A DNA stretch of 64,000 nt from Candidatus Woesearchaeota archaeon. GTDB lineage: Archaea > Nanobdellota > Nanobdellia > Pacearchaeales > GW2011-AR1. Positions 8,364 to 62,811 of the stretch are shown piece after piece. The notes beneath the pieces were generated by a model. That model ran no database searches and was not told where the DNA came from. It saw nothing but the letters and a program-made list of their open reading frames with translations. The stretch's first letter is position 1. Each line of letters begins with the position of its first letter. The position numbers and the translations under genes are program-made. The stretch lies in assembly GCA_964534185.1 (NCBI GenBank), contig CAZHOH010000002.1:10558-74557 (forward strand), in the 5' to 3' direction.

Positions 8364-8420
8364 GCCTGCCTCGCTTCCCTTTAACTGCTGACACCCTGGG
8401 GCAATTCGTCAGGCTACGAC

Positions 8421-21467: not shown

Positions 21468-21483
21468 TTATGATTCCGAGTTG

Positions 21484-21504: not shown

Positions 21505-21531
21505 ATGATTGAAAGAAAAAGGAGGATGACC

Positions 21532-25656: not shown

Positions 25657-26646
25657 TCAATCGTCGATGCGGCTCAATAGGTCTGATTTGAGCGCGTCGG
25701 GCAATGCCTTCAAAATAAGCAGCCATTCCTCTGTGTTTTTGACGGGATGAAGAGTGAATATCTCGTTGGCCCTTGAAATGGCTTGATTTGCGACCCCGGG
25801 GCCTACGCGACCCTCAGCCACGTCGTAATGGAGCCTTTTCTCGTCCTCGTAATAGCAGACTCTCTCGGATAAAGGTTTGGTTTTTCGAGCCTCAAATCTA
25901 GCCTTTCTCAGATATATACCGAAGAACAACTCGCTGCTAGTAATCGTATTGTCACGCATGACGAGAGGGAATGTGTTGCCTGGGATCTCATTCAGGACGA
26001 GAGATACAGCCCTGCGTGATAGCCACCAGAAATGGCCCTGAAGAGAATGCAGGCAACCTATGTTAGGAACGTCTCTATGGTTCCTCTGCCATTGCTCCGA
26101 TGCATTGTCGTACCTCTTTCTGATCAGTTTGGGCAGGTAGCGCACCAGTAAGCCTGACACGTCATACGGGGCAGCATCATGGCGCAAGATCAGGGTGTCC
26201 GGGTCTACGACGGCCAGAAAATCCGAGTCGCCCTGATTGATGAATTTACGAAAAATGTCCCTGTACGAGGAGAAGAGGTGATGCCTGTTGTCTCCGGCAA
26301 AGACGCTCAGCGGTAGTCCTACGTCGGGCAGTTTCCTTTCGCGACGCTGGCATATCCATACATTACCAACGTTTTGAAAGGCGGTAACGGCGAGCCTGAG
26401 GCATCTGTGGATGACCTCGTCCGGCTCGTCATAGACCAAAGCAGCCACGTCTATCTTCATTTTTCTTCTAGGGGCGCCTCCCGTCGCAAGCACCGAACCG
26501 ATCCCCTCGACCTCAACCTGCTTGGCCTTGGCCTTGGCCTTGGCCTTGGCTTTGGCCGGAGGATTGAGCGAGAAGCCCCAGCACCTCTCAGATCCGTAGG
26601 AGCAACCTCGTCCCCCGGGGGACGAGGTTTTTCTTTGTCGAGCCAT
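25657..26646 (-). CDS. GT-A-like glycosyltransferase carrying the shared 31-aa N-terminal module and an (AK)n linker
   Basis: MARQRKTSSPGGRGCSYGSERCWGFSLNPPA + AKAKAKAKAKAK + a body with FLAVVDPD (DxD-like). TAGGAGG RBS. Confidence 0.65.
   Translation of the reverse strand: MARQRKTSSPGGRGCSYGSERCWGFSLNPPAKAKAKAKAKAKQVEVEGIGSVLATGGAPRRKMKIDVAALVYDEPDEVIHRCLRLAVTAFQNVGNVWICQRRERKLPDVGLPLSVFAGDNRHHLFSSYRDIFRKFINQGDSDFLAVVDPDTLILRHDAAPYDVSGLLVRYLPKLIRKRYDNASEQWQRNHRDVPNIGCLHSLQGHFWWLSRRAVSLVLNEIPGNTFPLVMRDNTITSSELFFGIYLRKARFEARKTKPLSERVCYYEDEKRLHYDVAEGRVGPGVANQAISRANEIFTLHPVKNTEEWLLILKALPDALKSDLLSRIDD
26521..26556 (-). repeat. hexanucleotide microsatellite (GCCAAG)x6 in frame, encoding (AK)6
   Basis: Plus strand reads cttggc x5 then tttggc. 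Confidence 0.9.
26604..26629. repeat. 26-nt perfect palindrome AACCTCGTCCCCCGGGGGACGAGGTT (copy A)
   Basis: Read directly. Identical copies are at 28763-28788 and 49612-49637. It covers roughly codons 6-14 of the shared N-terminal module. Confidence 0.9.
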
Positions 26647-26701
26647 GTTGCCTCCTACCAGCCTGTTGGGATGCCGAGAGAAAAATCCCTTCCAGGAGAT
26701 G

Positions 26702-26731
26702 TTACATTCAACTTCAAGTGGCCCGTATAAT
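26702..26731 (+). promoter_or_regulatory. candidate promoter giving a leaderless methyltransferase mRNA
   Basis: TTACAT (26702-26707), 18 nt spacer, TATAAT (26726-26731). The ATG at 26738 is 7 nt after the -10 box, and no RBS lies between. Confidence 0.4.
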
Positions 26732-26737
26732 TACGGA

Positions 26738-27880
26738 ATGAACATCGTATCGCTGTTTACGGGAGCCATGGGGCTAGATCTGGGGCTAGAGGCCGCGGGC
26801 TTCCAGGCCGAGGTATGCGCCGACACCGACCGGTTCTGCCGCGAGACCATCGCCGCCAACAAGCCAGAGTCCAGGATCCTCGATGACGTCGCCAAGGTAA
26901 CGATAGACACGGCGCCGCGAAACCCCTGCATAGTGGCAGGGGGGCCTCCCTGCCAGTCATGGTCGACGGCCGGCAGGCGCAAGGGGTTCGACGACCCCCG
27001 GGGGGAACAAGTCCTAGAGTTTGGGCGGGTGGTTGCCGACTTGCGGCCCCGCTTTTTCGTGATGGAGAACGTGCGCGGACTCACCTCCATGCTGACCGGC
27101 GACAACCGCTTGGCCATAAACGTCATAGAGGAAGAGTTCGAGTCCATCGGCTACAAGGTGGTCCGCGGCGTGCTGAACGCGGTCGACTATGGAACCCCAC
27201 AGTTTCGGGACAGACTCATCATGATCGGATCCCGCGACGGCGAAGACATCTTCCTGCCATTGCCCACGCACTTCCAGAAACACCAGGAAGAAAGCATGAG
27301 GTGGGTGACTCTTGGCAAAGCCCTCCAGGGCATAGCCATAGATTCCCCGGGGGACTTCCAGGAATTCTCGCCCCGGCGCAAATCATGGCTGGAGAAGATC
27401 CCCCCGGGGGGGAATTGGAAGAGCCTGTCGGAGCAAGACCAGAGGAAGGCCATGGGAGAGGCCTACAACTCTGGGGGAGGCAAGACAGGCTTCTTCCGCC
27501 GGTTGTCCTACGACGAGCCCTCCCCGACGCTGGTGACCTCGCCGACGCAGAAATCCACGATTTTGTGCCACCCGGAGAAAACCCGCCCCCTAAGCACGCT
27601 GGAATACGCGCGGATACAGGACTTCCCCCGGGGGTGGAGCATACGGGGGAACACAACGGAAGTCTACAGGCAGATAGGGAACGCCGTCCCCGTCAGGCTT
27701 GGGCGCGCAATCGGGCAGGCGTTGCTCTCGACCATGAGCAAAAGCCACGTGGTAAAGGCCTCCCGCGTGCGCAAAGACGCCAGCGAGGAAGAAAGGACGC
27801 CAGTCCGCCCGCGCAAGAGAGCGGAGGAAGAAGAGCTCACCAAAGCAGGCATGGAGGCCTGGGGGATGCAAGATGTTTGA
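26738..27880 (+). CDS. DNA (cytosine-5)-methyltransferase
   Basis: SLFTGAMGLDLG (I), GGPPCQSWS (IV), FFVMENVRG (VI), QFRDRLIMIG (VIII), YRQIGNAVPV (X). Start reset to ATG 26738. Confidence 0.92.
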   Translation: MNIVSLFTGAMGLDLGLEAAGFQAEVCADTDRFCRETIAANKPESRILDDVAKVTIDTAPRNPCIVAGGPPCQSWSTAGRRKGFDDPRGEQVLEFGRVVADLRPRFFVMENVRGLTSMLTGDNRLAINVIEEEFESIGYKVVRGVLNAVDYGTPQFRDRLIMIGSRDGEDIFLPLPTHFQKHQEESMRWVTLGKALQGIAIDSPGDFQEFSPRRKSWLEKIPPGGNWKSLSEQDQRKAMGEAYNSGGGKTGFFRRLSYDEPSPTLVTSPTQKSTILCHPEKTRPLSTLEYARIQDFPRGWSIRGNTTEVYRQIGNAVPVRLGRAIGQALLSTMSKSHVVKASRVRKDASEEERTPVRPRKRAEEEELTKAGMEAWGMQDV

Positions 27881-28658
27881 CGATTTGAACGTAACCACCG
27901 AAGTAAAAAAGGCGTGGGTTAACCGATTCAAAGCATTTGAACACGGAACTGCCTACCTTCTTCCATACAAGGTCAAACAGATCCGCAAAGTAGTTGTTCG
28001 CGCCGTGGAACCAGAATACGAACTTGAAATGTCATCCGGTAACAAGGTTATAGCCGACCTAAAAAACCAACTGACGCCTTTCTTCTCGGTCAACAGCCAG
28101 CTAGACGCAATGCTCAGGCTTCCTGAGGAAACGTTGCGCGCAATCAAGGAGGCCGGACTGATCGGCAAGGGCATGGCCCGAAGGGACATGGTGCACCCTG
28201 GATTCTCGCGGCTGGAGGACGCCGTCTCCATCAACGTCAAGACCATAGTCAAGTATCCCCGGGATACTGCCCTGATAATCGTGGTGTCCTGGAACAAGCC
28301 TTGGAAAGGCAGAATGGCCAATGATCCCGTCAACTCAATCTACGCAACTACGGTCGGCAAGGTCAGGGACCTTGTTGCGGACCGGCCTCTTGTTCACTGT
28401 TACAAGAGACGTTTGCCCGTAAAGGACGGGGTCGAAGTATACCCGAGCACCGTGGAAGAGCTCTGTTACTCGCCGATCAATGACGAGAATGGAGAAAGAA
28501 ACTCAGCGGCATCGGCCATTCTGGACATCAATGACTTCAAAAGGATCGCGACCTTCGACCCCGATTGGCTTGAAGAAACAAAACGTGTTGGCGAACGCTT
28601 GCACGAACAAGCCCTTCAGGACAAGAAAAAAGAACTAACCGACTTCCTGGGCTTCTGA
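27873..28658 (+). CDS. hypothetical protein translationally coupled to the methyltransferase (261 aa)
   Basis: The ATG at 27873 overlaps the MTase stop by 8 nt. No catalytic motif recognised. Confidence 0.6.
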   Translation: MFDDLNVTTEVKKAWVNRFKAFEHGTAYLLPYKVKQIRKVVVRAVEPEYELEMSSGNKVIADLKNQLTPFFSVNSQLDAMLRLPEETLRAIKEAGLIGKGMARRDMVHPGFSRLEDAVSINVKTIVKYPRDTALIIVVSWNKPWKGRMANDPVNSIYATTVGKVRDLVADRPLVHCYKRRLPVKDGVEVYPSTVEELCYSPINDENGERNSAASAILDINDFKRIATFDPDWLEETKRVGERLHEQALQDKKKELTDFLGF

Positions 28659-28745
28659 TGTTAAAACGAGCCCCCTCCACGTCCCCCCGGGGCGCCAGGG
28701 AAGGAATTTTTCTCTCGGCATCCCAACAGGCTGGTAGGAGGCAAC

Positions 28746-31127
28746 ATGGCTCGACAAAGAAAAACCTCGTCCCCCGGGGGACGAGGTTGTTCCTACGGAT
28801 CCAAGAGGTGCTGGGGCTTCTCGCTCAATCCTCCGGCCGCGGCCCCACGTCAGGCCAAGGTCGAGGCCAAGGTCAAGGCCAAGGTCAAGGCCAAGAACAA
28901 GGAGGAAGAGACGGTCATCGAACTAGCCTCATTGAACCCGGACGTCGTCTACTCGACCCAAGGCGGCGGGTTCGGCGACCACTGGCTCCTCTGCGGCGCT
29001 CTCCTACAGGCAAGTGAACTGCATGGCAAGCCATTCAGGCTGCGCCGGGGCAAGACGAGGGGTGAACCAAGGCCTTTCGCCGTGGACTACCAGGAGTACT
29101 TCGACACGCAAGGAGAGATCGTCGAGTCGGACAGCGAAGCCAAAGTCGTATTCTTCTCCAGGGATGGCGGCAAGAACGACCTCGAAAGGCTCATGAAAGA
29201 CGGGTATGACAATCCTGTCCCGGAGCGCATCATCCCCTGGAACTACCTTTTCGAGGTTCCCCTTGCCAAGACAAGAAAAACACACCTTGGATTGCGCTCC
29301 AGGGTCATCGCCTATCAGTTCAGGGCCAGATCCAGAAAGGACATCAAGGAATGCGCCCCCGGGGAGGAGGATCGCTTCCTGGAGGAGGCGGCGCTCGCCG
29401 GCTATAGAACGATCGAGGTAGGGAAGCATGTCCCCTTGGATAGATGTTTGGAAGTTCTGTCATGGTGCGAGTTCTACGTCGGCATAGACACAGGACCTAC
29501 CCACCTCGCGCTCAACGTCGGCGCGCCGACGTGGGTCGTCCGCAACGGCGCCGACCTTGACTTTACATACAAGCATAGGAACATCACCGCGCTTCCGCGC
29601 CTCGGGGACGCAGGCTCTCTCCTGACGGCCTGCCAGCCACAAAAGAAAGCCTCCTTCCTCGTCCCCTGCAAGAACCGCTTGGAGTTTGCCAAGCAGACTC
29701 TCCCTCTGCTGGATTTCTTCGTGGGACAGGGGCACGAGGTCATATTCGTGGACTACGATTGCCCGCAACGATCAGGGGAGTGGGTCAAGAGCAACCATCC
29801 CGGCGTGACGGTCATCGAGGTAAAGGACAAGAAAAAGTATAACGCTGGAGAGGCTCGCAACCTAGCGGCCGCGGCGGCTAGGAACGACTGGCTTTGCTGG
29901 ATGGACTGCGACATAAAAGTCCATCCGAACTTCCTGGCCGAGCTGTGCCGCCTGGAAAAAGGCCAGTTCCTGTTCTTCGCCAAGAACGACCTCGTCCCCC
30001 GCAGGGGGATGGGTGGCTTGATGGCATGCTCCCGAGACGCGTATTACGAAGCAGGAGGCTACAGCAGTTACTACGACGAGTACGGCGGCAAAGACATAGA
30101 GTTCAAGTACAGGCTCTTCCAGAACGGAGAGGAGCCGCTGCAAGTCAACCCGCTCTGCGTCGAGCACGTCCCGCACCCTGATCATCTAAGGGTTCAGTTC
30201 TACGACAAGAAGAACCGACGGCTCGCGATCAAGGACAGCAACGCGGCGCTCAAGCAACGCATGCGGCACTTCGCAAAGAGAAACGAGCCACCCCCGTGGC
30301 AATTGAACTATGACAAGGCCGAGTACTCTCAGTTCTTCAACAAGGTCATCGTCAAACAACTTAGCCTTCATGTCACCGACCATTGCAACTTCAACTGCAT
30401 CGGGTGCAACCACGCTTCCCCATACTACGAGCCGAACAATCTCGACCCGGTATGCTTCTCGGAGCCGCTCCAGAAACTGGGGGAATTCTGCTACGCCAAG
30501 GAAATACACCTAGTTGGAGGAGAACCCTTCCTGCACCCTGACCTGTACGGATTCATCCGCTCCATCAAGGAGAGCAACAAGGTAAGCGACTTCATTCGCC
30601 TCTATACAAACGGCTTCTGGCTGTCAGAGCGCGGCCTGCTGCGTCACGCGCCAGTCCTCGACCAAATAGATGCGCTTCATGTCAGCATGCACCCCGAGTC
30701 CCCCGGGGGCGAGGTTGTTGAACAGATGCTGAGAACGATCAAGAAGAAACATCACATAGTGGCCCAGAAACACCGTAACGACAGGTTTTACAAGGTCGGG
30801 TTTCGAGAATCCCCCGCTGGGAGAGGATCCTGTCCCGTCAAGAAGTGCATGCACCTGTTGCCTGACGGAAGACTGGTCAAATGTGCCGTCGCGGGCTACT
30901 ACGCCCCGAAAAGCGAGGATGTTACGAAAGGCTTCATGGACCATTCCGGATCCGCTTTCTACGATGTGTCCCAGGGAAATTGCGAAAGCTTTGCCAAGTG
31001 GTATAATGGCATGGCTCAGTGCTGCAGGTTCTGTGGCTACGCGGAAGACTCCATACCATACGTGGGCAGAGTTGCAGGAGTTGGTCATGTCAAGAATCAG
31101 CGGAACAAAAGAGTGGGCGACGGATAG
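28746..31127 (+). CDS. multidomain protein: shared N-terminal module + GT9-like + GT2 + radical SAM (SPASM/twitch-like Cys tail)
   Basis: MARQRKTSSPGGRGCSYGSKRCWGFSLNPPA. GGGFGDHW...VGIDTGPTHLALNVGAP (GT9/heptosyltransferase-like). FLVPCKN...WMDCD (GT2 DxD). HCNFNCIGC (CxxxCxxC). C-terminal CPVKKC...C...CCRFCGY. Confidence 0.8.
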   Translation: MARQRKTSSPGGRGCSYGSKRCWGFSLNPPAAAPRQAKVEAKVKAKVKAKNKEEETVIELASLNPDVVYSTQGGGFGDHWLLCGALLQASELHGKPFRLRRGKTRGEPRPFAVDYQEYFDTQGEIVESDSEAKVVFFSRDGGKNDLERLMKDGYDNPVPERIIPWNYLFEVPLAKTRKTHLGLRSRVIAYQFRARSRKDIKECAPGEEDRFLEEAALAGYRTIEVGKHVPLDRCLEVLSWCEFYVGIDTGPTHLALNVGAPTWVVRNGADLDFTYKHRNITALPRLGDAGSLLTACQPQKKASFLVPCKNRLEFAKQTLPLLDFFVGQGHEVIFVDYDCPQRSGEWVKSNHPGVTVIEVKDKKKYNAGEARNLAAAAARNDWLCWMDCDIKVHPNFLAELCRLEKGQFLFFAKNDLVPRRGMGGLMACSRDAYYEAGGYSSYYDEYGGKDIEFKYRLFQNGEEPLQVNPLCVEHVPHPDHLRVQFYDKKNRRLAIKDSNAALKQRMRHFAKRNEPPPWQLNYDKAEYSQFFNKVIVKQLSLHVTDHCNFNCIGCNHASPYYEPNNLDPVCFSEPLQKLGEFCYAKEIHLVGGEPFLHPDLYGFIRSIKESNKVSDFIRLYTNGFWLSERGLLRHAPVLDQIDALHVSMHPESPGGEVVEQMLRTIKKKHHIVAQKHRNDRFYKVGFRESPAGRGSCPVKKCMHLLPDGRLVKCAVAGYYAPKSEDVTKGFMDHSGSAFYDVSQGNCESFAKWYNGMAQCCRFCGYAEDSIPYVGRVAGVGHVKNQRNKRVGDG
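28854..28901 (+). repeat. 12-nt in-frame tandem repeat (GCCAAGGTCRAG)x4 encoding AKVE/AKVK
   Basis: gccaaggtcgag gccaaggtcaag gccaaggtcaag gccaagaacaag. Confidence 0.85.
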
Positions 31128-31881
31128 CGTCAACTGCTGCCTTGGCTGCAGCCACAACTGCAGGTACTGCTACGCCCGGGCCAACGCGATGCGCTTCGGC
31201 AAAATATCATCCCCCGGGGAATGGTCCGATGAACAGGTCAATGACAAGGCCCTCGAGAAGAAGTTCGGGAAGAAGGCCGCGGGGCGACGGTTCATGTTCC
31301 CGACCACCCACGACATTACTCCCACGAACGTCGACGCCTGTCTGAAACTGCTGAAGAACGTCCTCTCCCCCGGGAACGAGGTTCTGATCGTCAGCAAGCC
31401 CCACCTCGAGTGCATCTCGCGCCTGACCGACGAGCTGGTCCAGTTTAAGGGACAGTGCATGTTCCGGTTCACAATCGGGGCCTCTGACGACGACATCCTG
31501 TCGTTTTGGGAGCCAGGCGCCCCTGGATTCAAAGAGAGGTTGGATTCTCTGCGTCTCGCTCGCGACCGCGGGTGGCAGACCTCAGTCAGCGCAGAACCCA
31601 TGCTTGACGCGGACAATGCCTACGATCTCTTCCATGCCCTGGAGCCATGGGTCACCGACAGCATCTGGATTGGCAAGATGAACCGCATCACCCTTCGTGT
31701 CATCGACAATGATGACCCCCTGGTCTCGAGGCACGTCGCGAAGATAGAGGCGGGCCAGACTGACGAGCGGGTGAGGCAGATTTACGAGATGCTGAGGAAC
31801 GAGCCGAAGGTCAGGTGGAAGGAGTCGTACAAGAAGGTCACTGGGATCGAACTATCCCAAGAGGCCGGACTTGACATTTGA
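31087..31881 (+). CDS. radical SAM protein, SplB / DNA-photolyase-like (COG1533-type)
   Basis: CCLGCSHNCRYCYARAN cluster near the N-terminus. Start reset to ATG 31087 (AGGAG RBS), overlapping the upstream gene by 41 nt. Confidence 0.75.
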   Translation: MSRISGTKEWATDSVNCCLGCSHNCRYCYARANAMRFGKISSPGEWSDEQVNDKALEKKFGKKAAGRRFMFPTTHDITPTNVDACLKLLKNVLSPGNEVLIVSKPHLECISRLTDELVQFKGQCMFRFTIGASDDDILSFWEPGAPGFKERLDSLRLARDRGWQTSVSAEPMLDADNAYDLFHALEPWVTDSIWIGKMNRITLRVIDNDDPLVSRHVAKIEAGQTDERVRQIYEMLRNEPKVRWKESYKKVTGIELSQEAGLDI

Positions 31882-46510: not shown

Positions 46511-48604
46511 TCACCACGTGGCGGCCAATCGAAAGGATAACACTCCGAAAGCGCACGCAGCAGCAACTGGGACGACGCCATTTCCCAGCAGGCGTAGCTG
46601 GTCTGTTCGACGCTCGTGGTCGAGTCTGTCCATCCCGGAGGCCACCCCATCAGCCATTCTACAAAGAGCGGGTTCAAGAAGCGGCTCGGCTTCAAGGACT
46701 TGCTCCCATTCCCTGAAGTCCCCTGGCCCCGGGGGCGCGAGGGGGAGGATTGTTCCAGATGGGCCTCGAAAACCTGCGACCACACCTTTGCCAGCGTCTC
46801 GACATGAACCTGATGGCTGCCGCTCTCCGACTGCCCCTTCCGAAGAACCTGCTCGACGCTCATAGCCCTGCCCCCGTTGGGCACGTTCGGCGTTGGCCAG
46901 AGACAGTTCCACACGTCGCTCCACATTTTCGCTACGACCTGGAGGCTCGTCGGAGTCTTCCGGGGGCCTCCCTTCATGCGCCGCTTCATCGCCATGTGGG
47001 CCCCAGGGGTCTTGTTGTCGTCGTTCGCCACCGCCGTTGGCCACAGCGGCCCATTCTGCCGCCCGGAGGATGGCCTCTTCTCCCGGTCTCGCGCCGGCGA
47101 TGAAGAGACGCTTTCGGACATGGCACAGTCCGACTTCCGCCGCCGAGAATAGTCCTGCTTCAACGTCGTAGCCCAGGCCTTGTAGGTCTCTGGCGACCTC
47201 GTCGAAGCCGACGTTAACGTGGTTGGGTACGTTCTCGAAAAAGAGGACGCGGGGTTCTGCCTCCTGGACGATCCTCCTGACGCTGGGCCAGAGGTGGCGG
47301 GGATCCTCCTTGCCCTTGATTCTCCCGGCACAGGAGAACGGCTGGCAGTTGTGGACGACAGTTCCGTCTGCCACGTAAGACTCATCGTCTCGGACTGCGA
47401 TGTTATAGACTGTGTCCTTGCCAACAGGGGCGTTTGAGCTGACGCGCTTCCATCCAAGACCTTGGTCGACGAAGGATGCACGATTGCGATCAGGGATGGA
47501 CACGATCCATGACGGCCTTTGTCTGACGAGTCTGCCTTCGATGACCTTATCTTTTGCGCTTTGGCAGCATCGAACGGCAGCAATGACCCCAAATGCTCGC
47601 TGAGAGAGCAGAGCGACACTGAGAGCAAGGGCCTTGCTCGCGGACTGAACTCGACGAAATCCCCCCTTTCCAACAGGGTTCTTATGTGCTCCTCCGTCTC
47701 CAGACAAGCATCCCTCAAGCAAGGCCCTGGCCTTTCCCTCTCCGAGGGAAAGGTACTTTCCGGGGATACGCTTGCCGCGGGCATGTCGTCCGAATTGCTG
47801 CAAGAACTTGAAGAAACATGTTCTTGTAATGGCGAATCTGGTTGTTGTTCGCTCCTCGCTCCTGTAGGCGCTAAGCCCTGCTTCTTGTATTCGCCTTTCA
47901 AGTTCGTCTGCCTCTGGTCTGTTGCAACAGATGTTGACACGACCATTTCTGTGGGAAGGAGATTTTTGGAGCCAACCGTCAGCCAAGTACCTCCCGACGA
48001 GCCACCAGAATTCTTTTGATCGTTTGTCTGGGCGCACTGGAGGGAGAGCCTGAGCCACCCAATGCGCTCCGGTGAGTTCCTTTGCCTGCACCCAATCAGG
48101 GGAACCAAAAGATCGCTGTCTTCCCTTTTGTTTGCACCTAGCGAAGAAGGGGTGCTCTTCTGTGCATCTGATTCCCGGGGTTCCTTGCGCCTTGATTTCC
48201 CTGATTGGGGCACCGTCCTTGCGCATGACCGCTGTGACTGGCTTCCATCTGGCTCGGTGGGTAAGGACCAGATCTCCAACTCGAACGTCTTCGATGGGGA
48301 CATATCCTCGCTTGCATAAGACGAGGGTTCCTGAGACGAAGCACGGGTACCCTCCAGTGACGCAATCCACGACGCCACGCCATCTTCTGCCGTCGAAGGT
48401 CTTGGCATCCGTCCAAATAGGCGCGTCGTCCAGCCGCCCTTCTTCCATGCGTGATGCCAGTACTTCGATGGCATATCCTTCCCTCTCCACGTAGCAGACG
48501 ACGCGAGAGCCTCCGACCGCCATTCGGAGTCCGAGCTCGAGTCCGCCGCCGCCGGAGCAGAGAGACAGAACGTTGAAGGTACGTATGCCCACATCTTTGT
48601 TCAT
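46511..48604 (-). CDS. DNA (cytosine-5)-methyltransferase interrupted by an intein
   Basis: LSLCSGGGGLELG (I), GGYP|C...HN|CQPFS (IV split), LFFENVPN (VI), RKRLFIAG (VIII), LLGNGVVP (X). See findings for the second open frame. Confidence 0.85.
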   Translation of the reverse strand: MNKDVGIRTFNVLSLCSGGGGLELGLRMAVGGSRVVCYVEREGYAIEVLASRMEEGRLDDAPIWTDAKTFDGRRWRGVVDCVTGGYPCFVSGTLVLCKRGYVPIEDVRVGDLVLTHRARWKPVTAVMRKDGAPIREIKAQGTPGIRCTEEHPFFARCKQKGRQRSFGSPDWVQAKELTGAHWVAQALPPVRPDKRSKEFWWLVGRYLADGWLQKSPSHRNGRVNICCNRPEADELERRIQEAGLSAYRSEERTTTRFAITRTCFFKFLQQFGRHARGKRIPGKYLSLGEGKARALLEGCLSGDGGAHKNPVGKGGFRRVQSASKALALSVALLSQRAFGVIAAVRCCQSAKDKVIEGRLVRQRPSWIVSIPDRNRASFVDQGLGWKRVSSNAPVGKDTVYNIAVRDDESYVADGTVVHNCQPFSCAGRIKGKEDPRHLWPSVRRIVQEAEPRVLFFENVPNHVNVGFDEVARDLQGLGYDVEAGLFSAAEVGLCHVRKRLFIAGARPGEEAILRAAEWAAVANGGGERRQQDPWGPHGDEAAHEGRPPEDSDEPPGRSENVERRVELSLANAERAQRGQGYERRAGSSEGAVGERQPSGSCRDAGKGVVAGFRGPSGTILPLAPPGPGDFREWEQVLEAEPLLEPALCRMADGVASGMDRLDHERRTDQLRLLGNGVVPVAAACAFGVLSFRLAATW
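47348..48343 (-). mobile_element. 332-aa class-1 intein with LAGLIDADG homing-endonuclease domain
   Basis: Starts CFVSGTLV (block A). Contains CTEEHPFF (block B TxxH), LVGRYLADGW and LLEGCLSGDGG (two LAGLIDADG motifs). Ends VADGTVVHN, followed by the +1 Cys of CQPFS. Confidence 0.85.
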
Positions 48605-48631: not shown

Positions 48632-49654
48632 CTACGGGGCCAGCCTCCTTTTGATTTCCTCGCGGACAAACACGCGCGTCGCGTCCAGTTTTTCCTGGAG
48701 AGTCATCTTATCCCGCTCCTTTCCCCAGTAGAGAACGCTCACGTCGGGCCTGTCATGGAGCGGAAGCCATCCTGGCACGTATAGTCCCCAGAACTCGTCT
48801 ACCGAGATCGCCGGCATACCAAAGGAAGGGGCAAGAAAGCCCCCGCCTCCCATGCTTAATGTAAACTCCGCCCCGCTCATTACCTCTAGCTGTCTCTGCA
48901 GGTACTCGGTTCGAACCGGCTTCTTCAGTGTCTCCAGAAACATAGTCTCGTTGCCAATCCTGTTACGGTCTACCCGATCCAGCCGATCTAGGCCCGTGTG
49001 TGGGGCCCAACCAACCCCGATGACTTCGTAGCCGTAGTGGTTGACCAACTCCTTTAATTCCAGCCATTCTAGGAAAGGCAGGCTCCTGCCTCCCGCCGTG
49101 CCACCAAACTCGTCTCCTTTCAGCCACCTTTCGGACAAGCAGGGTATGAAGCACACGTACTTGCGAGGATCCTTCTTGACCCAGGACCAGTCCATCTTCG
49201 CATTGACCAGTTCCCTCGGGAAGTCCCTCCGCATCTTGGAAAATAACTTCAGAACGGCGCTCTTTCCCGTCCCCTCCTTGGCCGGGAAATGATATGAATC
49301 GCTGAACTGGCTCCAAACCTCTTCCTTCAGGTCGTCAAGCCACTCGGAATGTATATTGACCTCGTCTCCGAGCCACCGCTTCAACAGGAAAGCTGGCCAT
49401 ATGCGGGTGACGCATACCTCGCCGAACTCACCGCCGTGAATGATGTTCCTAAGATCCAGATCTATCTTCTCCCTGGGACGGCGCAGAGGGGAGGCCTCAA
49501 CCTCCTCCTCAACCTTGGCCTCAACCTCCTCCTCCTCAACCTTGGCCTGACGTGGGGCCGCGGCCGGAGGATTGAGCGAGAAGCCCCAGCACCTCTTGGA
49601 TCCGTAGGAACAACCTCGTCCCCCGGGGGACGAGGTTTTTCTTTGTCGAGCCAT
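48632..49654 (-). CDS. GT9-like glycosyltransferase carrying the shared 31-aa N-terminal module and a VE/AK linker
   Basis: MARQRKTSSPGGRGCSYGSKRCWGFSLNPPA + AAAPRQAKVEEEEVEAKVEEEVEA + a GT-B-like body. Start reset to ATG 49654 with a TAGGAGG RBS. Confidence 0.65.
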   Translation of the reverse strand: MARQRKTSSPGGRGCSYGSKRCWGFSLNPPAAAPRQAKVEEEEVEAKVEEEVEASPLRRPREKIDLDLRNIIHGGEFGEVCVTRIWPAFLLKRWLGDEVNIHSEWLDDLKEEVWSQFSDSYHFPAKEGTGKSAVLKLFSKMRRDFPRELVNAKMDWSWVKKDPRKYVCFIPCLSERWLKGDEFGGTAGGRSLPFLEWLELKELVNHYGYEVIGVGWAPHTGLDRLDRVDRNRIGNETMFLETLKKPVRTEYLQRQLEVMSGAEFTLSMGGGGFLAPSFGMPAISVDEFWGLYVPGWLPLHDRPDVSVLYWGKERDKMTLQEKLDATRVFVREEIKRRLAP

Positions 49655-49906
49655 GTTGCCTCCTACCAGCCTGTTGGGATGCCGAGAGAAAAATTCCTTC
49701 CCCCGGGGGGCGCGGGAGGGCGTCCATGGCATCGCCGAGGAGGCCAAGCCCTATGCGCTCCTGTTGGCAGTGACGCGAGACTCGGGTGCGTCGGCATTCG
49801 TCAACCTAGTTCAGGATCGGTATGACCTTCACGTACCCGCGACGAGAGGGCCACAGCATGCACCATCCAAACATGATAGCCTCTGGCCTGTCGTACGAGA
49901 TCTCGG

Positions 49907-50641
49907 TCACTCCGTATGCGGTGATTCTTGGGTGCATGACACTATCCTGTTGGCTGTGACATAGGACTCGGGGGTGCCAGCGTCGGTCCACTCCCCATCC
50001 AGGCAGGCGATCCGCAGCTTGCCCTCCCGAACGAACTCCATGTTCAGATCAGTGACCTCTAACTCGCCGCGGTTGCTAGGCTGCAGCCTAGGCAACAAAG
50101 AGAAGGCATGCGGCGGGTAAAAATAGATGCCCGTCTGTGCCAGATTCGACCTTGGCTCCCGGGGCTTCTCCTCGATCGCGACGACGCGATCCTCGCTTAC
50201 CTCGACCACCCCGTACCTGCGGGGATCCTCGACTTCCTTGACGAGAATCATGGCGTGGTCGTCGGGCAGCGCGTCGTAGGACTGAACGAAAGGAAGCAGC
50301 GGATCCGAGAATATATTGTCGCCAAGGAGCACGCAGAACCGATCCCTGCCGACGAAGTCGTCGCACAACATAAGCGCTTGCGCTATTCCGCCCGCCTCGT
50401 CCTGGATGCGGTAGGTCAGCTCGCACCCCAGTTTCCTTCCGGAGCCGAGGAGCGCCATGAAGTCCCCGGAATGCTCGGGTCCGCAAATGACCATGATCTT
50501 TCGGATGCCGCCCTCGATGAGTTTGGCCAAGGGCCACATGATCATCGGCTTCATGCCGACGGGCAACAAGTGCTTGTTTGTCACCTGCGTCAGGGGGTGC
50601 AGCCTAGTGCCCGTGCCGCCGGCAAGGATGATTCCTTTCAT
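49907..50641 (-). CDS. sugar-1-phosphate nucleotidylyltransferase (RmlA/GalU-like)
   Basis: MKGIILAGGTGTRLHPLT and LLGDNIF. Start reset to ATG 50641. Confidence 0.85.
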   Translation of the reverse strand: MKGIILAGGTGTRLHPLTQVTNKHLLPVGMKPMIMWPLAKLIEGGIRKIMVICGPEHSGDFMALLGSGRKLGCELTYRIQDEAGGIAQALMLCDDFVGRDRFCVLLGDNIFSDPLLPFVQSYDALPDDHAMILVKEVEDPRRYGVVEVSEDRVVAIEEKPREPRSNLAQTGIYFYPPHAFSLLPRLQPSNRGELEVTDLNMEFVREGKLRIACLDGEWTDAGTPESYVTANRIVSCTQESPHTE

Positions 50642-50876
50642 GATGTCATTATACGTTGAAGGTTGGGAAATAGGCGCTGCGGTTGGACGAGCGCGCGGCG
50701 GAAGGCATGAGGCCACGGCAGTCGAGCGTGTGCCGGCATCCGCCTGCTACGCTGAACTGTTTGGCGCCGGGACTGATTTTTGTTCCCTAGGTTGGGCCGT
50801 TCTTTTCACTGCCGGCACGACGTATTTTCTTTTCAACAGTACTCCGCAGGGGGCGTTATTGGTCTAGCGGCCTTCG

Positions 50877-53992: not shown

Positions 53993-55354
53993 CTACTCGC
54001 GCTTGAAATCGAGGTTGATCTTGTAGTTCCACGTCTTGCCGTGCTCCGGGTGCACCCCGAAAACGGACTGGGTTGGCCGCGACGCCTTGCGGAGCTGGTG
54101 CATCGAGTAGATGTCTCCCCCCACGAAACTGCCGTTGACCATGATCTCGCCGCGCGTCGTCTGCAGGTCGCTGAAGGAGTGAAAGTGCCCGAGGCAAAGG
54201 TAGTCGAAGGGCTTTCGCGTCGCTCCCGACACCAGGTTCTGCAGGCTCAGCTCCTCCTTGTAGATGGAGTTGATGTTCTGGGAGATGTAGTCGCCGTGAA
54301 CAAGCAGGAACTCCCAGTCGTTGATGGTCTTCGTTTGCCACCATGCCTGTGAATAGTTGACGTTGATGTTCGGCCTGTTCTGCAGGAGGGCCTGCAGTAA
54401 CTTGTACGATATGAGGTCCCAGTTGGCCGACACCTTGTCGGAGCTCTTCGAGACCCCCGCGCGCCCATGGTTGCCAAGAACTCCGTCGAACTCGACCCGC
54501 TCGAAGTAGGCGCTCCAGGCGTCCAGCATCTCGGAGACCACCTGCGCGGCCATGATGGCCTGCTGAGTGATGTCTAGCGTCGTGTAGGCCGGCCCCCACT
54601 CCCCCGCGAGGTTGGCCCCCTGGACAAAGTCGCCCAGGCCCATAACGTGCAGCACGGGCACCTGCCTGACCTCGCTGTGCAGGGACAGTATCTCGAGCAC
54701 GGCGCTGCGAAGGTTGCTGGCCCTCTCCTTGAACACCTCGACGTCGTAGCCGCCGAGGCCACCCGTGTCCTGCGGGGAGAACTCCTGTCCCACGTGCAGG
54801 TCGGACAGCATGAGCACCATGTGCTCGTCGGAATGCTTCTTATTTTTCGCCCTGTTGAGCGTCAGCTTTGGCAGGGCCTGGCGGGGCAGCGGGGTGGCGC
54901 TCCGCTCGATCGCCTCCTGGAGTTCGCGCAGGAAGGCCTTGTTGCTGACTTCCTTTCTCCGCACCTTGACGACATTCTTCGCGGCCTCCCTGTCCCGGAC
55001 CGACTCGGCCTCCAGGTGCAGGACGTCGTCGTAGGTCATGTCGCACAACTCGGCCAGCACCTCGGCGAACCTATCCCAGTCGACGCTATTGACCTTCCTC
55101 GTGATCGTGGAGCGCTCGTAGCCGAGGGCGTCGGCCATCGCGGCATGGGACAGCTTGGAATTACTGGACACCAGCTCGTATAGGGCGACCATCTTTGGGG
55201 CGTCCCACGCGGCTGTCACGCCGGGCAGGCACGAGAACCGCAGCGGATCCTCCCCGTGCTTCTCCATGAACGCACTGACGGCGTCCACCCTCCGAGTTGA
55301 CTTTCTCTTCGCCAGCCTCTTCCGAATGGCGTCGGCACGATCCTTCCTGTTCAT
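53993..55354 (-). CDS. calcineurin-like metallophosphoesterase with N-terminal HTH-like region
   Basis: LSDLHVG, GLGDFVQG, GNHG, VHGD, GHFH. Start reset to ATG 55354 (TAATG overlap). Confidence 0.8.
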   Translation of the reverse strand: MNRKDRADAIRKRLAKRKSTRRVDAVSAFMEKHGEDPLRFSCLPGVTAAWDAPKMVALYELVSSNSKLSHAAMADALGYERSTITRKVNSVDWDRFAEVLAELCDMTYDDVLHLEAESVRDREAAKNVVKVRRKEVSNKAFLRELQEAIERSATPLPRQALPKLTLNRAKNKKHSDEHMVLMLSDLHVGQEFSPQDTGGLGGYDVEVFKERASNLRSAVLEILSLHSEVRQVPVLHVMGLGDFVQGANLAGEWGPAYTTLDITQQAIMAAQVVSEMLDAWSAYFERVEFDGVLGNHGRAGVSKSSDKVSANWDLISYKLLQALLQNRPNINVNYSQAWWQTKTINDWEFLLVHGDYISQNINSIYKEELSLQNLVSGATRKPFDYLCLGHFHSFSDLQTTRGEIMVNGSFVGGDIYSMHQLRKASRPTQSVFGVHPEHGKTWNYKINLDFKRE

Positions 55355-56526
55355 TAAGATCTCCCTGGCAGGACTGATACGGGTAAAACGTCGCTCGCCC
55401 GGAACCATAAGTCTCGCCGAGCCTCGTCAAGGGGCAGGCTCTCGTCCAAGCCTCCCACTTTTTCCAGCACTGTTCTCCTCGCGACGAAACTATCGGGCGC
55501 GCCAGCGGCGAATATGTGGCCGGGGCCCTCCAGTGCCTTTAGTTGGGCCGCCAGCCGACGCGGTTCCTGCCTGTCGGCCAGCCAGACGTACTTGGTACGG
55601 GTCATCAAGAGGCCCAGGTTGAAGGCTCCCGTGTTGGATGCCCCCGGGGGTGGGACTACGGCCCTGACTCCCTCTGGCGCCGGCCCGTCGGATACGAGTG
55701 TGACCTCGAAGTCATGAAGGCCGCTTCCGCTCAGTTCCCTTGTGACCTTGGACAAGTCGTTCATACTGCCTATTATTACGATTCCCAATGTTGGGACCCG
55801 AAATTTGTCCACGTATTGGGAGGACAAGGAAAATTCCCCGGCCTCCCCCATCTTCCTGAGGCGCGCCTCCACGACGTCCCTTAGCATGCAGGCCATGGAG
55901 TACGAGAACGGGCTGCCGCTTCCGCGCGAGGGCCCGCCTCCCCTATGGATGACGTTTGTCACGGCGTCGGCTTTGCCCGGCGCTCCGCACGCGATGTACA
56001 TGCGCCCCCAGAAGTCCCAGTCCTCCATTTTTTGCAGGCTTTCGTCCCATCCCCCTACGAGCTCGAACGCCTTTCTCGTGTGGATGAACGATGAGACGGG
56101 CGCGATGTTCTGCGACAGGAGCGCGTCGGGGTCGTAATAGCGCTTCGGCCCGGGGTTGTTTGGCTCGGGGTCGGTGGTCTCGAAGCCGTCGGCATAGCGG
56201 AACAACGCCCGGGAGAAGGAGAACTCGTGGCTCCCTATGGCGCGGAGTTGTTCTCCCACGTAGTTCGGCAGCAGCTCGTCGTCGTCGTCGAGATAGCAGA
56301 TGTAGTCCGCGGAAGACATCTTGACGCCGAAGTTGCGGGCGTAGGCAGGGCCCCTTCCCCCGGGGGTGGACAGGAGCCTGGTTCCAGGAACAGGATTCGG
56401 GGCACGGGGACCGTCGTTGACGACAATAATATCCATCACCTTGACTGTTTGGTTCAATGCGGATTTGACAGCACGCCCAAGCAAATCCGGCCTGCTGTAT
56501 GTCGGGATTATAATGGCTATATTCAT
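55354..56526 (-). CDS. family-2 glycosyltransferase (tandem GT-A halves)
   Basis: IIIPTYSRPDLLGRAVKSALNQT and YLDDDDELLP. Start reset to ATG 56526. Confidence 0.85.
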   Translation of the reverse strand: MNIAIIIPTYSRPDLLGRAVKSALNQTVKVMDIIVVNDGPRAPNPVPGTRLLSTPGGRGPAYARNFGVKMSSADYICYLDDDDELLPNYVGEQLRAIGSHEFSFSRALFRYADGFETTDPEPNNPGPKRYYDPDALLSQNIAPVSSFIHTRKAFELVGGWDESLQKMEDWDFWGRMYIACGAPGKADAVTNVIHRGGGPSRGSGSPFSYSMACMLRDVVEARLRKMGEAGEFSLSSQYVDKFRVPTLGIVIIGSMNDLSKVTRELSGSGLHDFEVTLVSDGPAPEGVRAVVPPPGASNTGAFNLGLLMTRTKYVWLADRQEPRRLAAQLKALEGPGHIFAAGAPDSFVARRTVLEKVGGLDESLPLDEARRDLWFRASDVLPVSVLPGRS

Positions 56527-57113
56527 TGTTTCCGAAAAGCCCGAAGAGCTTCTGTCCCTTCGAGACTTTCTTGAAGAACATTTATTCTGTCTGAGACTTC
56601 TGGCGATACCCACCAGTCCTCAAACGGGTACCCATCGTTTCGGATGTCAGGCGCCGCCAAAACGTAACCACGCGCAAGAAAGATGCCGCGGGACGCGCCA
56701 CGAAGATCATCCCCGAGCCTGTAAGAATCGTGCTCGAATGTTACGACGGAGAATTTATAGTCATCGAGTACGTCCGCCTCGATCTTCTTCAACGTAGACA
56801 ACGAAGCGTCGTCTACATCAAGACTCAGGTAGTCTATCTGCGCGGGAAAGGATAGCCTACGAAAAAGCGACCCATAGTCTATGGATGTAGAGTCCCGCAT
56901 AACTGCCTCGGAGCGCGGACGTTTCTTCTCGTACGAGGCTCTTCTGCTCGCGTCCATGTCTACAAGGCATCCGCGCCAGCCATACCGGGTCTCCAGCGCG
57001 TATGTATTACTGATCTGAATGGGGTCTCCCGCTCCGATATCAACAAACGTTCCTTCCCTTTTGGCGTTGAGGCAAAAGACTACGAATTCGTCCTGTAACG
57101 CTTGACTTTGCAT
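56523..57113 (-). CDS. FkbM-family SAM-dependent methyltransferase
   Basis: GTFVDIGAGDP. Confidence 0.7.
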   Translation of the reverse strand: MQSQALQDEFVVFCLNAKREGTFVDIGAGDPIQISNTYALETRYGWRGCLVDMDASRRASYEKKRPRSEAVMRDSTSIDYGSLFRRLSFPAQIDYLSLDVDDASLSTLKKIEADVLDDYKFSVVTFEHDSYRLGDDLRGASRGIFLARGYVLAAPDIRNDGYPFEDWWVSPEVSDRINVLQESLEGTEALRAFRKQ

Positions 57114-58186
57114 TAGAAACCCAATACTTTGTTGGATACGACCTGGCTAACGTTATCGACCGCGTATTCCGGGGGTATCAACCACTTGGAATCATTGTCC
57201 CTTATAATACGAACGCAGCGCATGATGTCCTCTGGTAGGACACCGGATAAAATGTTACTGCCACACTCGATGGTTTCCGGGCGCTCTGTGGAATCGCGAA
57301 TCGTAATATTGGGGATGCCCATGATGCAGCACTCTTCCTGAACGGTACCGCTGTCAGTTAGAACGAAGCAAGCCTGCTGCTCGAGTTTTACGAAGTCAAA
57401 TAGCCCGAACGGCTGCAAGAAGTGTATTTTGTTGTCTACGAGGTCCTTGTCCATCTCCTCCAAGCGATTTCTAGTTCGGGGATGAACACTGCATACGACA
57501 GGGAGTTCGTAATCCCTTCGGATGCTTCCAAGGGAGTCCAGCAGATGTCTCAATCGAAGTTTGTCGTCGACATTCTCCTGACGGTGCATAGTAACCAAGC
57601 AATAGGATTCATAAAGTCCTAGGTCATCAAGAATGCGTGACTCTGAGATTTTGTTTGCGTAGTATCGAAGTACCTCGGCGATGGGATTTCCCGTTACGAA
57701 TATCCGATTACCTTCTATACCTTCGCGCAGGAGGTTACTTCTGCTTCTTTCTGTATAAGGCATCAGCACATCGCTCGAATGGTCTATGATACGTCTGTTT
57801 ACTTCTTCGGGCACGCGGTCATCGAAGCACCTATTGCCAGCTTCCATGTGGTAGACCGGGATGCCGAGCCTCTTGGCAACAATAGCCGACAATGCGCTGT
57901 TGGTATCCCCCAGCAAGAGGACGCGATCGGGGAGCTCCTCCTCCATTACCTCTTCGGACAAGGCAAGGATGCGGCCAATTTGTGCACCGAAAGTAGACTC
58001 TCGTATTCCAAGGAGACGATCCGGAGTACGAACCCCCAGCTCATCAAAAAATACGTCATTCAGTTTGGCGTCATAGTTCTGACCCGTATGAACTAGGACA
58101 TGATCACACAACGCGTCTAACTTGGGGATTATCCGGCTCAACCTGATTATCTCAGGCCTGGTTCCGAGTAGTGTTAGAACCTTCAT
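57113..58186 (-). CDS. wecB: UDP-N-acetylglucosamine 2-epimerase (non-hydrolysing)
   Basis: LLGTRPEIIRL, HTGQNYD, GDTNSAL, HMEAGNR, VTGNP, TDSGTVQEE. Confidence 0.9.
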   Translation of the reverse strand: MKVLTLLGTRPEIIRLSRIIPKLDALCDHVLVHTGQNYDAKLNDVFFDELGVRTPDRLLGIRESTFGAQIGRILALSEEVMEEELPDRVLLLGDTNSALSAIVAKRLGIPVYHMEAGNRCFDDRVPEEVNRRIIDHSSDVLMPYTERSRSNLLREGIEGNRIFVTGNPIAEVLRYYANKISESRILDDLGLYESYCLVTMHRQENVDDKLRLRHLLDSLGSIRRDYELPVVCSVHPRTRNRLEEMDKDLVDNKIHFLQPFGLFDFVKLEQQACFVLTDSGTVQEECCIMGIPNITIRDSTERPETIECGSNILSGVLPEDIMRCVRIIRDNDSKWLIPPEYAVDNVSQVVSNKVLGF

Positions 58187-59097
58187 CGGTTTCCTCCGTA
58201 AATCTTCCCCCTAGTTTTGATGCCAGGAAAATCTACCCATTCATCCCCAAAATGCGCATAATCTTTTTCCGTCGTAATTCGAATCTCATGAACACACCCT
58301 GATTTCTTCAACTTTATGAATGATAACTTCTTATAACTCTTGCGATCCAAAACCCAGATGCCACCATCAGAATGATTCCTCGCAGCACGGCTCCCATCCC
58401 ATACTGACTGGCCCATGAGAATGAGATCTCGCGAAATAGCCAACCCACGAGTAAGGACTCTTTTCTCGGCTTGACAAAGAATTTCCCCTGACGAAGCCTC
58501 AATCAATTGTCCCCTGTTGGTAGCGCATACTAGGGTCTGGCCTTGCACGCGGCATACATTATGCGCCCACAAAGAAGCCTCCATCGAGATGTATTTCTCA
58601 ATGACTTTTGTAGTTAAATCTACTATGAATATCTTGGAAGGGCGCTCCCAATTATGCGCACATACGTACAGTTTACCCCCCTTGACATAGACAGAGTTGA
58701 AATGGTTTCCGGTACCTTTTGGGCCTAGTCGATCCCATTTCTTATCATTGATCCAGAAGTTCTCATATTCTAGAGTTTGCGTATCAAGGATACCTATGGC
58801 ATTCCGCCCCGTATTAGTACATATTACTTTGCCATTATTGCAAACAATCTGGTGGGGCTGAGAAAGAAACGCGGCGGACGTTCTTCGAGCTACGGATACT
58901 GTTCCCTTTATTGAGTTTCTATATGATTCTTCCGTTCCGAGAGAAGCATTGTCTATGTTGCTATGCGAGAAGCACAGCCCCTCTCTTGTCCAAGAAATGC
59001 CATAGTATTCAGTACGACCGCTCTCGACTACTTCGTAGCGTCCCGTCTCAATATCAACCCAGAGGATATTCTTCGGACATGCAACCAATACTTCCAC
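58183..59097 (-). CDS. hypothetical beta-propeller-like protein
   Basis: 304-aa beta-rich ORF inside the sugar cluster. Confidence 0.55.
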   Translation of the reverse strand: MEVLVACPKNILWVDIETGRYEVVESGRTEYYGISWTREGLCFSHSNIDNASLGTEESYRNSIKGTVSVARRTSAAFLSQPHQIVCNNGKVICTNTGRNAIGILDTQTLEYENFWINDKKWDRLGPKGTGNHFNSVYVKGGKLYVCAHNWERPSKIFIVDLTTKVIEKYISMEASLWAHNVCRVQGQTLVCATNRGQLIEASSGEILCQAEKRVLTRGLAISRDLILMGQSVWDGSRAARNHSDGGIWVLDRKSYKKLSFIKLKKSGCVHEIRITTEKDYAHFGDEWVDFPGIKTRGKIYGGNR

Positions 59098-59106
59098 TTT
59101 CTTCTC

Positions 59107-59796
59107 CTATGACAACGTCTTGATGTAGGCCTCAGCGAACCTTCTGCCCAGCATCCCCATCCCTTGGAAAGTATGGTGAAGTGCGTCATCCTTGAGAGGA
59201 ATGTCATCCGTATTCAAACAGATTACTCTGTCCAGAACAGACGCTGCCTTATCTTGAGCGTCCCTTACATTGGGCCGAAACGGGAATCTCCCAACAGGAG
59301 GATTAACGCGACCCAAGAACAATGGTACGTCTGAGATATCCTTCCTCAACCGGGATACCAAGAGACGAAAGTTGTCCAAGTAAGTCATGGCTGCTGGCTT
59401 ATACTTGCAGTCTCTTTCTCCTTGCATCCAGAAAATGGCTCGTACACCATCCCCCTTCCGGTAAATACGACCAAACTCGCTGACGAGTTTTTGGTACATC
59501 GGGCCATCGGAAACGTTTTGGGTAATCGCAGCTCTTTTCTCGGTCCACTCGGGTGCCCATGCCAAGAGAGAAGTACCGTTCGCGGCGCACTTGAGTATCT
59601 TGACAGGTTCCTTTACCCGTTTTCGTATGTGTGACGCAAATTCATACTCAGGGCCCGCAAAAGGAAGTTCACAAAAACCTTTTTTTTTGCCGTCCCAGTA
59701 AACTTCGACGCCATCTATTGAGTTGGACACCGTCCGGCTAGAAGAGCACGTACCTACCATGTTGGACTGTCCGGCAAGAATAAAAATATGAGCCAT
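59107..59796 (-). CDS. carbohydrate esterase, sialate O-acetylesterase-like (GQSNM motif)
   Basis: IFILAGQSNMVG at the N-terminus. Confidence 0.7.
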   Translation of the reverse strand: MAHIFILAGQSNMVGTCSSSRTVSNSIDGVEVYWDGKKKGFCELPFAGPEYEFASHIRKRVKEPVKILKCAANGTSLLAWAPEWTEKRAAITQNVSDGPMYQKLVSEFGRIYRKGDGVRAIFWMQGERDCKYKPAAMTYLDNFRLLVSRLRKDISDVPLFLGRVNPPVGRFPFRPNVRDAQDKAASVLDRVICLNTDDIPLKDDALHHTFQGMGMLGRRFAEAYIKTLS

Positions 59797-59799
59797 CGA

Positions 59800-61401: not shown

Positions 61402-61402
61402 A

Positions 61403-62808: not shown

Positions 62809-62811
62809 ACC

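Follow-up and report, generated by a model that had tools for sequence, protein, structure and literature searches.

A recently spread leader cassette on glycosyltransferase-type genes of a large, uncultured phage, in a region that may be a mosaic of accessory modules

We analysed a 64,000-nucleotide (nt) stretch of contig CAZHOH010000002.1 (assembly GCA_964534185.1, deposited as Candidatus Woesearchaeota archaeon), hereafter the window, and in it a 6.2-kb region with genes for a C5 cytosine DNA methyltransferase, glycosyltransferases (GTs) and two radical S-adenosylmethionine (SAM) proteins. We tentatively favour the reading that this region is a mosaic of accessory modules rather than a single pathway, in which the GTs make a glycan on the virion or on another non-DNA acceptor. 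An original prediction, made from the letters alone, had described the same region as a DNA-hypermodification island. Its enzyme assignments largely stand, and so does the leader tag it noticed, but the single unit does not: one radical SAM gene appears to be independent, the leader cassette seems to be a recent insertion, and the window contains three C5 methyltransferases.

The phage character was indicated by window genes matching PHROGs at 1e-80, 9e-58 and 2e-50 (the last an exonuclease). Only distant relatives were found among large phages, and a megablast search with 20 kb of the window gave no nucleotide match in GenBank phages. Judged by its genes, the window is part of a large, uncultured phage. 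The five genes of the region were all located where they had been predicted, around a divergent control region that measured 91 bp instead of the predicted 90 bp. Rfam and tRNA scans gave no match.

The leader cassette is a block of about 140-170 nt, found in three copies with 97-100% nt identity at 26646(-), 28746(+) and 49654(-). It is composed of a 47-nt 5′ untranslated region (5′UTR) with AGGAGG, an ATG, 30 basic codons and a perfect 26-nt palindrome, AACCTCGTCCCCCGGGGGACGAGGTT. The codons encode the leader peptide MARQRKTSSPGGRGCSYGS[K/E]RCWGFSLNPP, with a net charge of +4 to +6. Downstream of the block, slippage-type repeats give rise to AK, AKV(K/E) or E-rich linkers, and beyond the leader the three tagged proteins showed no sequence relationship. 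A basic leader with AK linkers had been predicted; the leader is indeed shared and basic, with the copy at 49654(-) added, but only two linkers are basic and that of the third protein (340 aa) is acidic, with a net charge of -4. As the fusion open reading frame (ORF) contains no other start codon, the leader peptide must be translated there. An interpretation of the leader as a lipobox, Sec or Tat signal was rejected, the hydrophobic segment being absent. A 50-aa leader query found no match among 5.8 billion proteins, yet two database proteins carry the leader, and this null result is probably a filter artefact. An exact copy of the palindrome was absent from the viral and genome collections.

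Through comparison with a relative from another sample (loci L002/L003, 82% nt identity), we found that the cassette is missing at this site. In L002 each junction between methyltransferase, 261-aa gene and fusion is a stop codon that overlaps the next start codon, and the fusion begins with MAAIELSSLSPDV (MAAIELSS), without the leader; by BLASTN, 255 nt of the window stand in place of 5 nt. Synonymous divergence (dS) between the window phage and the relative is 0.6-1.0, against a difference of 0-3% among the cassette copies, so that the cassette appears to be the product of a very recent spread, or its copies were homogenised. As far as the three tagged genes can be classified from their sequences, it occurs only on GT-type genes, the 340-aa protein being a candidate GT.

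The cassette may be regarded mainly as mobile or recombining regulatory DNA or RNA, composed of a translation-initiation region and an antisense-terminator palindrome, with the peptide as a tolerated by-product. The near-identity extends over the 47 untranslated nt, the insertion displaces the ancestral coupled start, and the linkers are slippage-prone 6-12-nt repeats which vary in length and charge. Read on the opposite strand, antisense to the leader ORF, the palindrome and the TTTTTCTTTG after it score as an intrinsic terminator, at 26604-26640 (+) and 28753-28788 (-). However, all three insertions are in frame and in GT-type genes only, for which we estimate a chance of about 4e-4 if ~5 of ~70 genes are GT-like, and the lack of an alternative start below the leader in the fusion implies that the peptide is made. 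The 171-nt cassette RNA folds slightly better than shuffled controls (z = -2), which is unexceptional overall. We consider this account doubtful, and it can coexist with the glycan reading.

T4-type mobile regulatory cassettes, and the capsid-targeting sequences of T4 internal proteins, also place a conserved promoter or 5′ end and a short N-terminal tag on unrelated genes. The cassette described here is similar in its near-identical 5′ region and N-terminal peptide on unrelated bodies, stem-loop included, but differs in sequence, in a far longer tag (30 aa plus the repeat linker) and in its restriction to GT-type genes. By analogy, the leader might be a capsid-targeting propeptide, by which the tagged proteins would be loaded into the prohead, cleaved at x-V-E and injected with the DNA to act early on host targets. 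An identical N-terminal tag and a conserved upstream region on unrelated protein bodies recall the T4 internal-protein locus, and all three linkers have K/Q-V-E motifs, a type of site at which prohead proteases cut. Considering that the window showed neither a prohead protease nor a capsid gene, that homologue support is absent, and that a GT depends on nucleotide-sugar donors whose synthesis by the phage begins only once it has infected, we judge this highly unlikely.

The first tagged protein (329 aa) had no match in Pfam, PHROG or NCBIfam. An exhaustive HMMER search revealed 11 distant homologues, some of them tandemly duplicated and one with a fused GT1 domain; D-x-D-T is invariant across them, and GEE and HPVK motifs are common to them too. 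The AlphaFold2 (AF2) model built from the homologue alignment had a predicted local distance difference test score (pLDDT) of 75 and a predicted TM-score (pTM) of 0.76, and Foldseek matched it to ABO GT6, chondroitin synthase and CpsY (E ~1e-7, with a modest TM of 0.37-0.55). A GT-A enzyme is expected to have one Rossmann-like domain for the nucleotide sugar, in which DxD follows a beta-strand, and the earlier GT-A call gains support from both motif and predicted fold.

The second tagged protein is the 793-aa fusion, for which a GT9-GT2-radical SAM order had been proposed. The GT2 domain in the middle (PF00535, 37.8 bits vs cutoff 23.3) and the radical SAM domain (PF04055, 36.1-39.6 bits vs cutoff 29.5) pass the Pfam cutoffs, but GT9 does not: PF01075 reached 17.3 bits vs cutoff 22, over just 38 model positions. 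Glyco_transf_7C was matched at 23.3 bits vs cutoff 23. The closest similarities of the GT2 segment are to polypeptide GalNAc-transferases and chondroitin synthase. The radical SAM domain contains C547NFNC551IGC554 (CX3CX2C), and its best solved relative is a 4Fe-4S protein (PDB 7wzv, 1e-14), followed by viperin and MoaA; tblastn of the whole fusion against phages gave only weak MoaA-like matches. Among the 5.8 billion proteins, the fusion has one close relative and no other homologue. The third tagged protein (340 aa) showed no family match in its body. Searches of viral, genome and metagenome contig collections revealed nothing related to the fusion, the GT-A family or the 261-aa protein, and the gene neighbourhood of the region is not conserved.

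Table 1. Features of the leader cassette, the 6.2-kb region and related genes of the window
Feature	Position	Strand	Remarks
Third C5 DNA methyltransferase	2-916	-	PF00145 8e-50; cut by window start
Leader-tagged 329-aa putative glycosyltransferase, predicted GT-A fold, DxDT; body from ~residue 63	25657..26646	-	Homologue motifs, AF2, Foldseek
Leader cassette copy 1	26554..26693	-	Core; 4 mismatches to copies 2 and 3
Divergent intergenic region, 91 bp	26647..26737	.	26647-26693 = leader-cassette 5′UTR with AGGAGG Shine-Dalgarno
C5 cytosine DNA methyltransferase, 380 aa from Met32 of the ORF opening at 26645	26738..27880	+	
261-aa orphan protein	27873..28658	+	8-nt overlap with methyltransferase stop
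255-nt insertion relative to L002, with leader cassette copy 2	28661..28915	+	Core 28699-28866, ATG 28746, palindrome 28763-28788, AK(V/E) repeat linker
793-aa fusion: leader, GT-B/GT9-like N-domain (sub-threshold), GT2 (GT-A), radical SAM, Cys-rich SPASM/twitch-like tail	28746..31127	+	
264-aa radical SAM protein, COG1533/SPL superfamily, phrog_13321	31087..31881	+	ORF opens at 30883
Second C5 methyltransferase, intein-interrupted	46511..48604	-	Directly downstream of third leader gene
Third leader-tagged protein, 340 aa, acidic linker	48632..49654	-	Weak GT-B-like G-rich motif in body
Leader cassette copy 3	49534..49701	-	One mismatch to copy 2 over ~169 nt
RmlA-type glucose-1-phosphate thymidylyltransferase	49907..50716	-	PDB 3hl3 at 1e-78; directly upstream of third leader gene
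Glycan gene cluster: GT2, UDP-GlcNAc 2-epimerase, SASA esterase, FkbM methyltransferase, sulfotransferase, DegT aminotransferase, GNAT	55354..63951	-	

The phage also seems to bring its own sugar toolkit. The RmlA gene and the 55-64 kb cluster are, by their predicted functions, the gene content of elaborate glycan synthesis. The cluster is mostly low in GC (0.47 from ~58 kb vs ~0.6 elsewhere) and looks like a separately acquired module. None of the GTs contains a transmembrane segment, the maximum KD19 hydropathy being <=1.02. A virion or surface glycan had been named as the alternative in the original prediction, and in our view this toolkit fits it at least as well as a DNA substrate. Capsid and tail glycosylation is known in mycobacteriophages, and giant viruses build fibril glycans with viosamine or rhamnose pathways. 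The window is similar to such systems in its cytosolic multi-domain GTs and in the aminotransferase, acetyltransferase, methyltransferase and 2-epimerase, a likeness which here is one of genes only; unlike them, it has no adjacent structural gene, and neither a radical-SAM fusion nor a shared leader tag is described there. Virus-encoded virion glycosylation systems are mentioned in PMC11256854. In addition, a 470-aa orphan at 35760-37172 (-) has a DxD-like motif (FMDTDAW) and no match in Pfam, PHROG, NCBIfam, PADLOC or PDB, and may be a further enzyme that transfers nucleotide sugars.

In the model we favour, the C5 methyltransferase and the translationally coupled 261-aa orphan would form a methylation module acting on phage DNA. 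The 329-aa GT-A protein, the 793-aa fusion and the 340-aa protein, all soluble, would build and modify a glycan on an acceptor other than DNA, for which we infer a virion protein as the leading candidate. Their donors would be dTDP- and UDP-sugars supplied by the phage RmlA, DegT aminotransferase, GNAT, 2-epimerase, FkbM methyltransferase and sulfotransferase, and the fused radical-SAM/SPASM-like domain might tailor the sugar or the acceptor. All three proteins would lately have gained the cassette, that is a Shine-Dalgarno sequence, a start codon, a basic peptide of 30 residues rich in Cys and Gly, and a helical linker of A/K/E/V repeats, so that they would be expressed alike and probably share a tag for docking or localisation. 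The second radical SAM protein of the region would be the product of an independent gene, probably acting on nucleic acid.

Several points weigh against the glycan reading. No capsid or tail structural gene was found in the window, so the link to a glycosylated virion protein cannot be drawn; the window covers 64 of the ~108 kb of the 107.7-kb NCBI contig, and ~44 kb lie outside it. Two of the three tagged GTs directly adjoin C5 methyltransferases and the third is in an operon with one, an adjacency with a rough chance probability of p ~0.02 (2/3 tagged GTs, three methyltransferases, ~70 genes). The basic leader, with its SPGGRG motif, and the AK repeats could bind nucleic acid. The 340-aa protein is only a candidate GT as judged by its motif. 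Finally, phage M6 gp53 provides a precedent for a radical SAM protein of the spore photoproduct lyase (SPL) type in DNA hypermodification (PMC8989533).

The methyltransferase at 26738 is unambiguous, as had been predicted. It matched PF00145 at 5e-63 (213.9 bits vs cutoff 22; HaeIII/HhaI-like), TIGR00675 at 186 bits vs cutoff 100.65 and HaeIII at 1e-38, and it is a full-length member of the C5 family with GGPPCQ and ENV motifs. The true start is probably Met32 at 26738; a TATAAT at 26726-26731, read as a promoter by inspection, ends 6 nt ahead of this ATG. The following 261-aa ORF had been predicted to overlap the methyltransferase stop, and it is a real gene because the relative L002/L003 retains it with 83% aa identity, in the same coupling to the methyltransferase, and with a ratio of nonsynonymous to synonymous substitution (dN/dS) of 0.13, indicating purifying selection. 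The 261-aa protein had no match in Pfam, PHROG, NCBIfam, PADLOC, PDB or plasmids. Structure prediction had been suggested for these proteins; it gave a GT-A fold for the 329-aa protein, but for the 261-aa protein the single-sequence AF2 model reached a pLDDT of 35 only. A Vsr-type partner for the methyltransferase was rejected, with no Pfam match.

The methyltransferase and the 261-aa ORF might instead be a type II restriction-modification pair, in which the 261-aa protein is a highly diverged endonuclease directed against host or competing DNA and unrelated to the GTs. A methyltransferase followed by an overlapping ORF of about this size is typical of type II systems, the methyltransferase matched type II models at 1e-92, an orphan partner suits the extreme diversity of restriction endonucleases, and the pair is under purifying selection. 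On the other side, the 261-aa protein matched no endonuclease model in PADLOC, Pfam or PDB, no clear PD-(D/E)xK motif was seen on inspection, and its AF2 model is the poor one given above. We consider this pairing unlikely; it too can coexist with the glycan reading.

Two further C5 methyltransferases in the window bring the number to three. In the second, an intein is inserted exactly in the catalytic motif (GGYP/CFVSG...VVHN/CQPFS). The intein splits P/CQ, and therefore the catalytic Cys would be the +1 extein residue.

The last gene of the region had been called SplB. The 264-aa protein is indeed a radical SAM protein of the SPL superfamily (PF04055, 32-32.8 bits vs cutoff 29.5; cluster motif CSHNCRYC), but the SPL model itself failed: PF20903 reached 16.4-17.3 bits against a cutoff of 27. 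The match to PDB 4fhg had an E value of 0.099, and the NCBIfam Rv2578c, PA0069 and mobile-pair-B models were all far under their cutoffs. Judged by homologues, 31087 is the most likely start. We found 34 homologues with 41-58% identity, on IMG/VR contigs of up to 527 kb. None of these 34 loci has a gene related to those for the GT-A protein, the fusion or the 261-aa protein, and a weak methyltransferase match occurred at only two. A Pfam tally of the 134 ORFs neighbouring the homologues revealed terminase, portal, integrase, ParB, helicase and two C5 methyltransferases, and no GT. By this comparison of neighbourhoods, the SPL-like gene is an independent, widespread phage gene.

Among the same loci, seven (e.g. 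L015, L016, L017 and L021) encode a ~212-aa protein on the same strand, 300-860 nt upstream of the radical SAM homologue. This protein contains the SAM-methyltransferase-like motifs VLDCCQGSG and DVDTYGSP, reminiscent of Trm1/TcmP, and the two may form a conserved radical SAM-methyltransferase pair; the window has no homologue of it. ParB-like proteins recur at six of the loci. A third radical SAM protein of the window (10020-10907 (-)) is MoaA/QueE-like, under all family cutoffs, and lies beside a PARP gene.

DNA hypermodification, as originally predicted, would require that methyltransferases set 5-methylcytosine (5mC), that radical SAM enzymes functionalise its methyl group or the base without O2, and that the tag-tethered GTs add RmlA-route and other phage sugars. 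Phage clusters of a C5-methyltransferase, a TET/JBP dioxygenase and a glycosyltransferase reportedly hypermodify 5mC. The window is like these in having a C5 DNA methyltransferase beside soluble GTs in a phage genome; unlike them, it has radical-SAM domains, a much larger GT complement and sugar toolkit, and no TET/JBP or other 2-oxoglutarate (2OG) oxygenase. In the Pfam scans, which covered ~58 ORFs of the window, no known hydroxyl-handle enzyme was revealed: there was neither a TET/JBP or other 2OG oxygenase, whose absence had been noted before, nor a ThyA-like enzyme (dCMP hydroxymethylase or 5-hydroxycytosine (5hoC) synthase). We know of no radical-SAM hydroxylation of 5mC.

Other phages provide partial precedents. 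In Pseudomonas phage M6, gp53 is an SPL-like radical SAM isomerase which acts on N-alpha-glycinyl-thymidine in DNA (PMC8989533). The 264-aa protein is likewise a phage-encoded radical SAM protein of the same superfamily, but tblastn found no similarity to M6, the M6-type partners (5-HMUDK, aGPT-Pplase and the pyridoxal phosphate (PLP) enzyme, a decarboxylase) were not found in the window by Pfam, and the family stands mostly beside terminase, portal and ParB. In RB69 and DLP3, phage nucleotide-sugar synthesis and GTs lead to arabinosyl-5-hydroxycytosine, in a route that starts with a thymidylate-synthase homologue making the 5hoC mononucleotide (PMC13326640). The window phage also makes its own nucleotide sugar and has several GTs, but the scanned ORFs include no thymidylate-synthase homologue.

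Within the window itself, hypermodification is favoured by the interleaving of GT and methyltransferase genes at two loci, including the row of RmlA, leader-GT and intein methyltransferase. The translational coupling of methyltransferase, 261-aa gene and fusion in L002 points the same way, as do the solubility of the GTs and the basic leader. The three radical SAM proteins, together with a relative from a faecal sample, may suit a host that lives without oxygen, under which condition TET cannot function. However, the methyltransferase adjacency is less telling because there are three methyltransferases in the window, and the SPL-like gene was never beside GTs at the 34 other loci. The tag is recent and missing at this site in the relative, and one linker is acidic. 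To our knowledge, no function in DNA hypermodification is known for sulfation, O-methylation or an esterase, as would be needed for the sulfotransferase, FkbM O-methyltransferase and SASA esterase. We regard DNA hypermodification as quite improbable. Its specific form, an O2-independent glycosylated cytosine in which 5mC would be activated by the SPL-like protein and/or the fusion's SPASM-like domain and then glycosylated by tag-tethered GTs with phage-made dTDP- and UDP-sugars, as a new class of pathway replacing TET/JBP, we regard as more improbable still.

A local peak of CCCCCGGGGG sites had also been put forward for a DNA substrate. CCCCCGGGGG is the commonest 10-mer of the window, with 22 copies vs 0.2 expected, in all three codon phases (sites include 350, 725, 5242, 26995, 27401, 27625, 30700, 41913 and 56357), whereas GGGGGCCCCC has 0 copies. 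The 6.2-kb region contains six copies vs 2.1 expected. The peak is weak because the enrichment is window-wide and two of the six copies are inside the cassette; excluding these, 4 copies vs 1.9 expected are not significant by a Poisson estimate. Two sites were checked in the 82%-identical relative, and neither is the full decamer. CCCCCGGGGG is a window-wide, lineage-specific DNA-level signal and is no evidence for a local DNA substrate.

Elsewhere in the window we found a dense set of RNA repair and processing genes at 20805-21467 (+), 23356-25599 (-), 37178-38146 (-), 40247-40786 (+), 44386-45276 (-) and 52496-53566 (-). It comprises a kinase-phosphatase-RNA ligase fusion (Pnkp-like), a second weak RNA-ligase-like ORF, an HD/OB protein, an Rv2179c-like exoribonuclease, a Thg1-like enzyme and RlaP. 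A NAD-related set at 6000-9995 (-) and 41131-43119 (-) includes a PARP catalytic domain with WGR, a NAPRTase-family enzyme, a DHH phosphoesterase and a NAD-dependent DNA ligase, and could counter NAD-depleting host defences. Peptide deformylase, PP2C phosphatase and a sigma-70-like ORF were also found at 45874-46473 (-), 17118-17942 (-) and 21481-22407 (+), the sigma factor by reading of the translation only.

If the GTs act on DNA, the region would encode the first radical-SAM-based, TET-independent route to a sugar-modified cytosine, of importance both to the anti-restriction biology of phages and as a tool for enzymology. If they make a virion or other glycan, a GT-B-like/GT2/radical-SAM fusion with one close relative among 5.8 billion proteins is still unusual. 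The ~100-fold enrichment of CCCCCGGGGG is a separate DNA-level signal. The cassette places the same translation start and N-terminal tag on three unrelated enzymes, and may be a compact natural case of modular tagging, or a mobile regulatory element.

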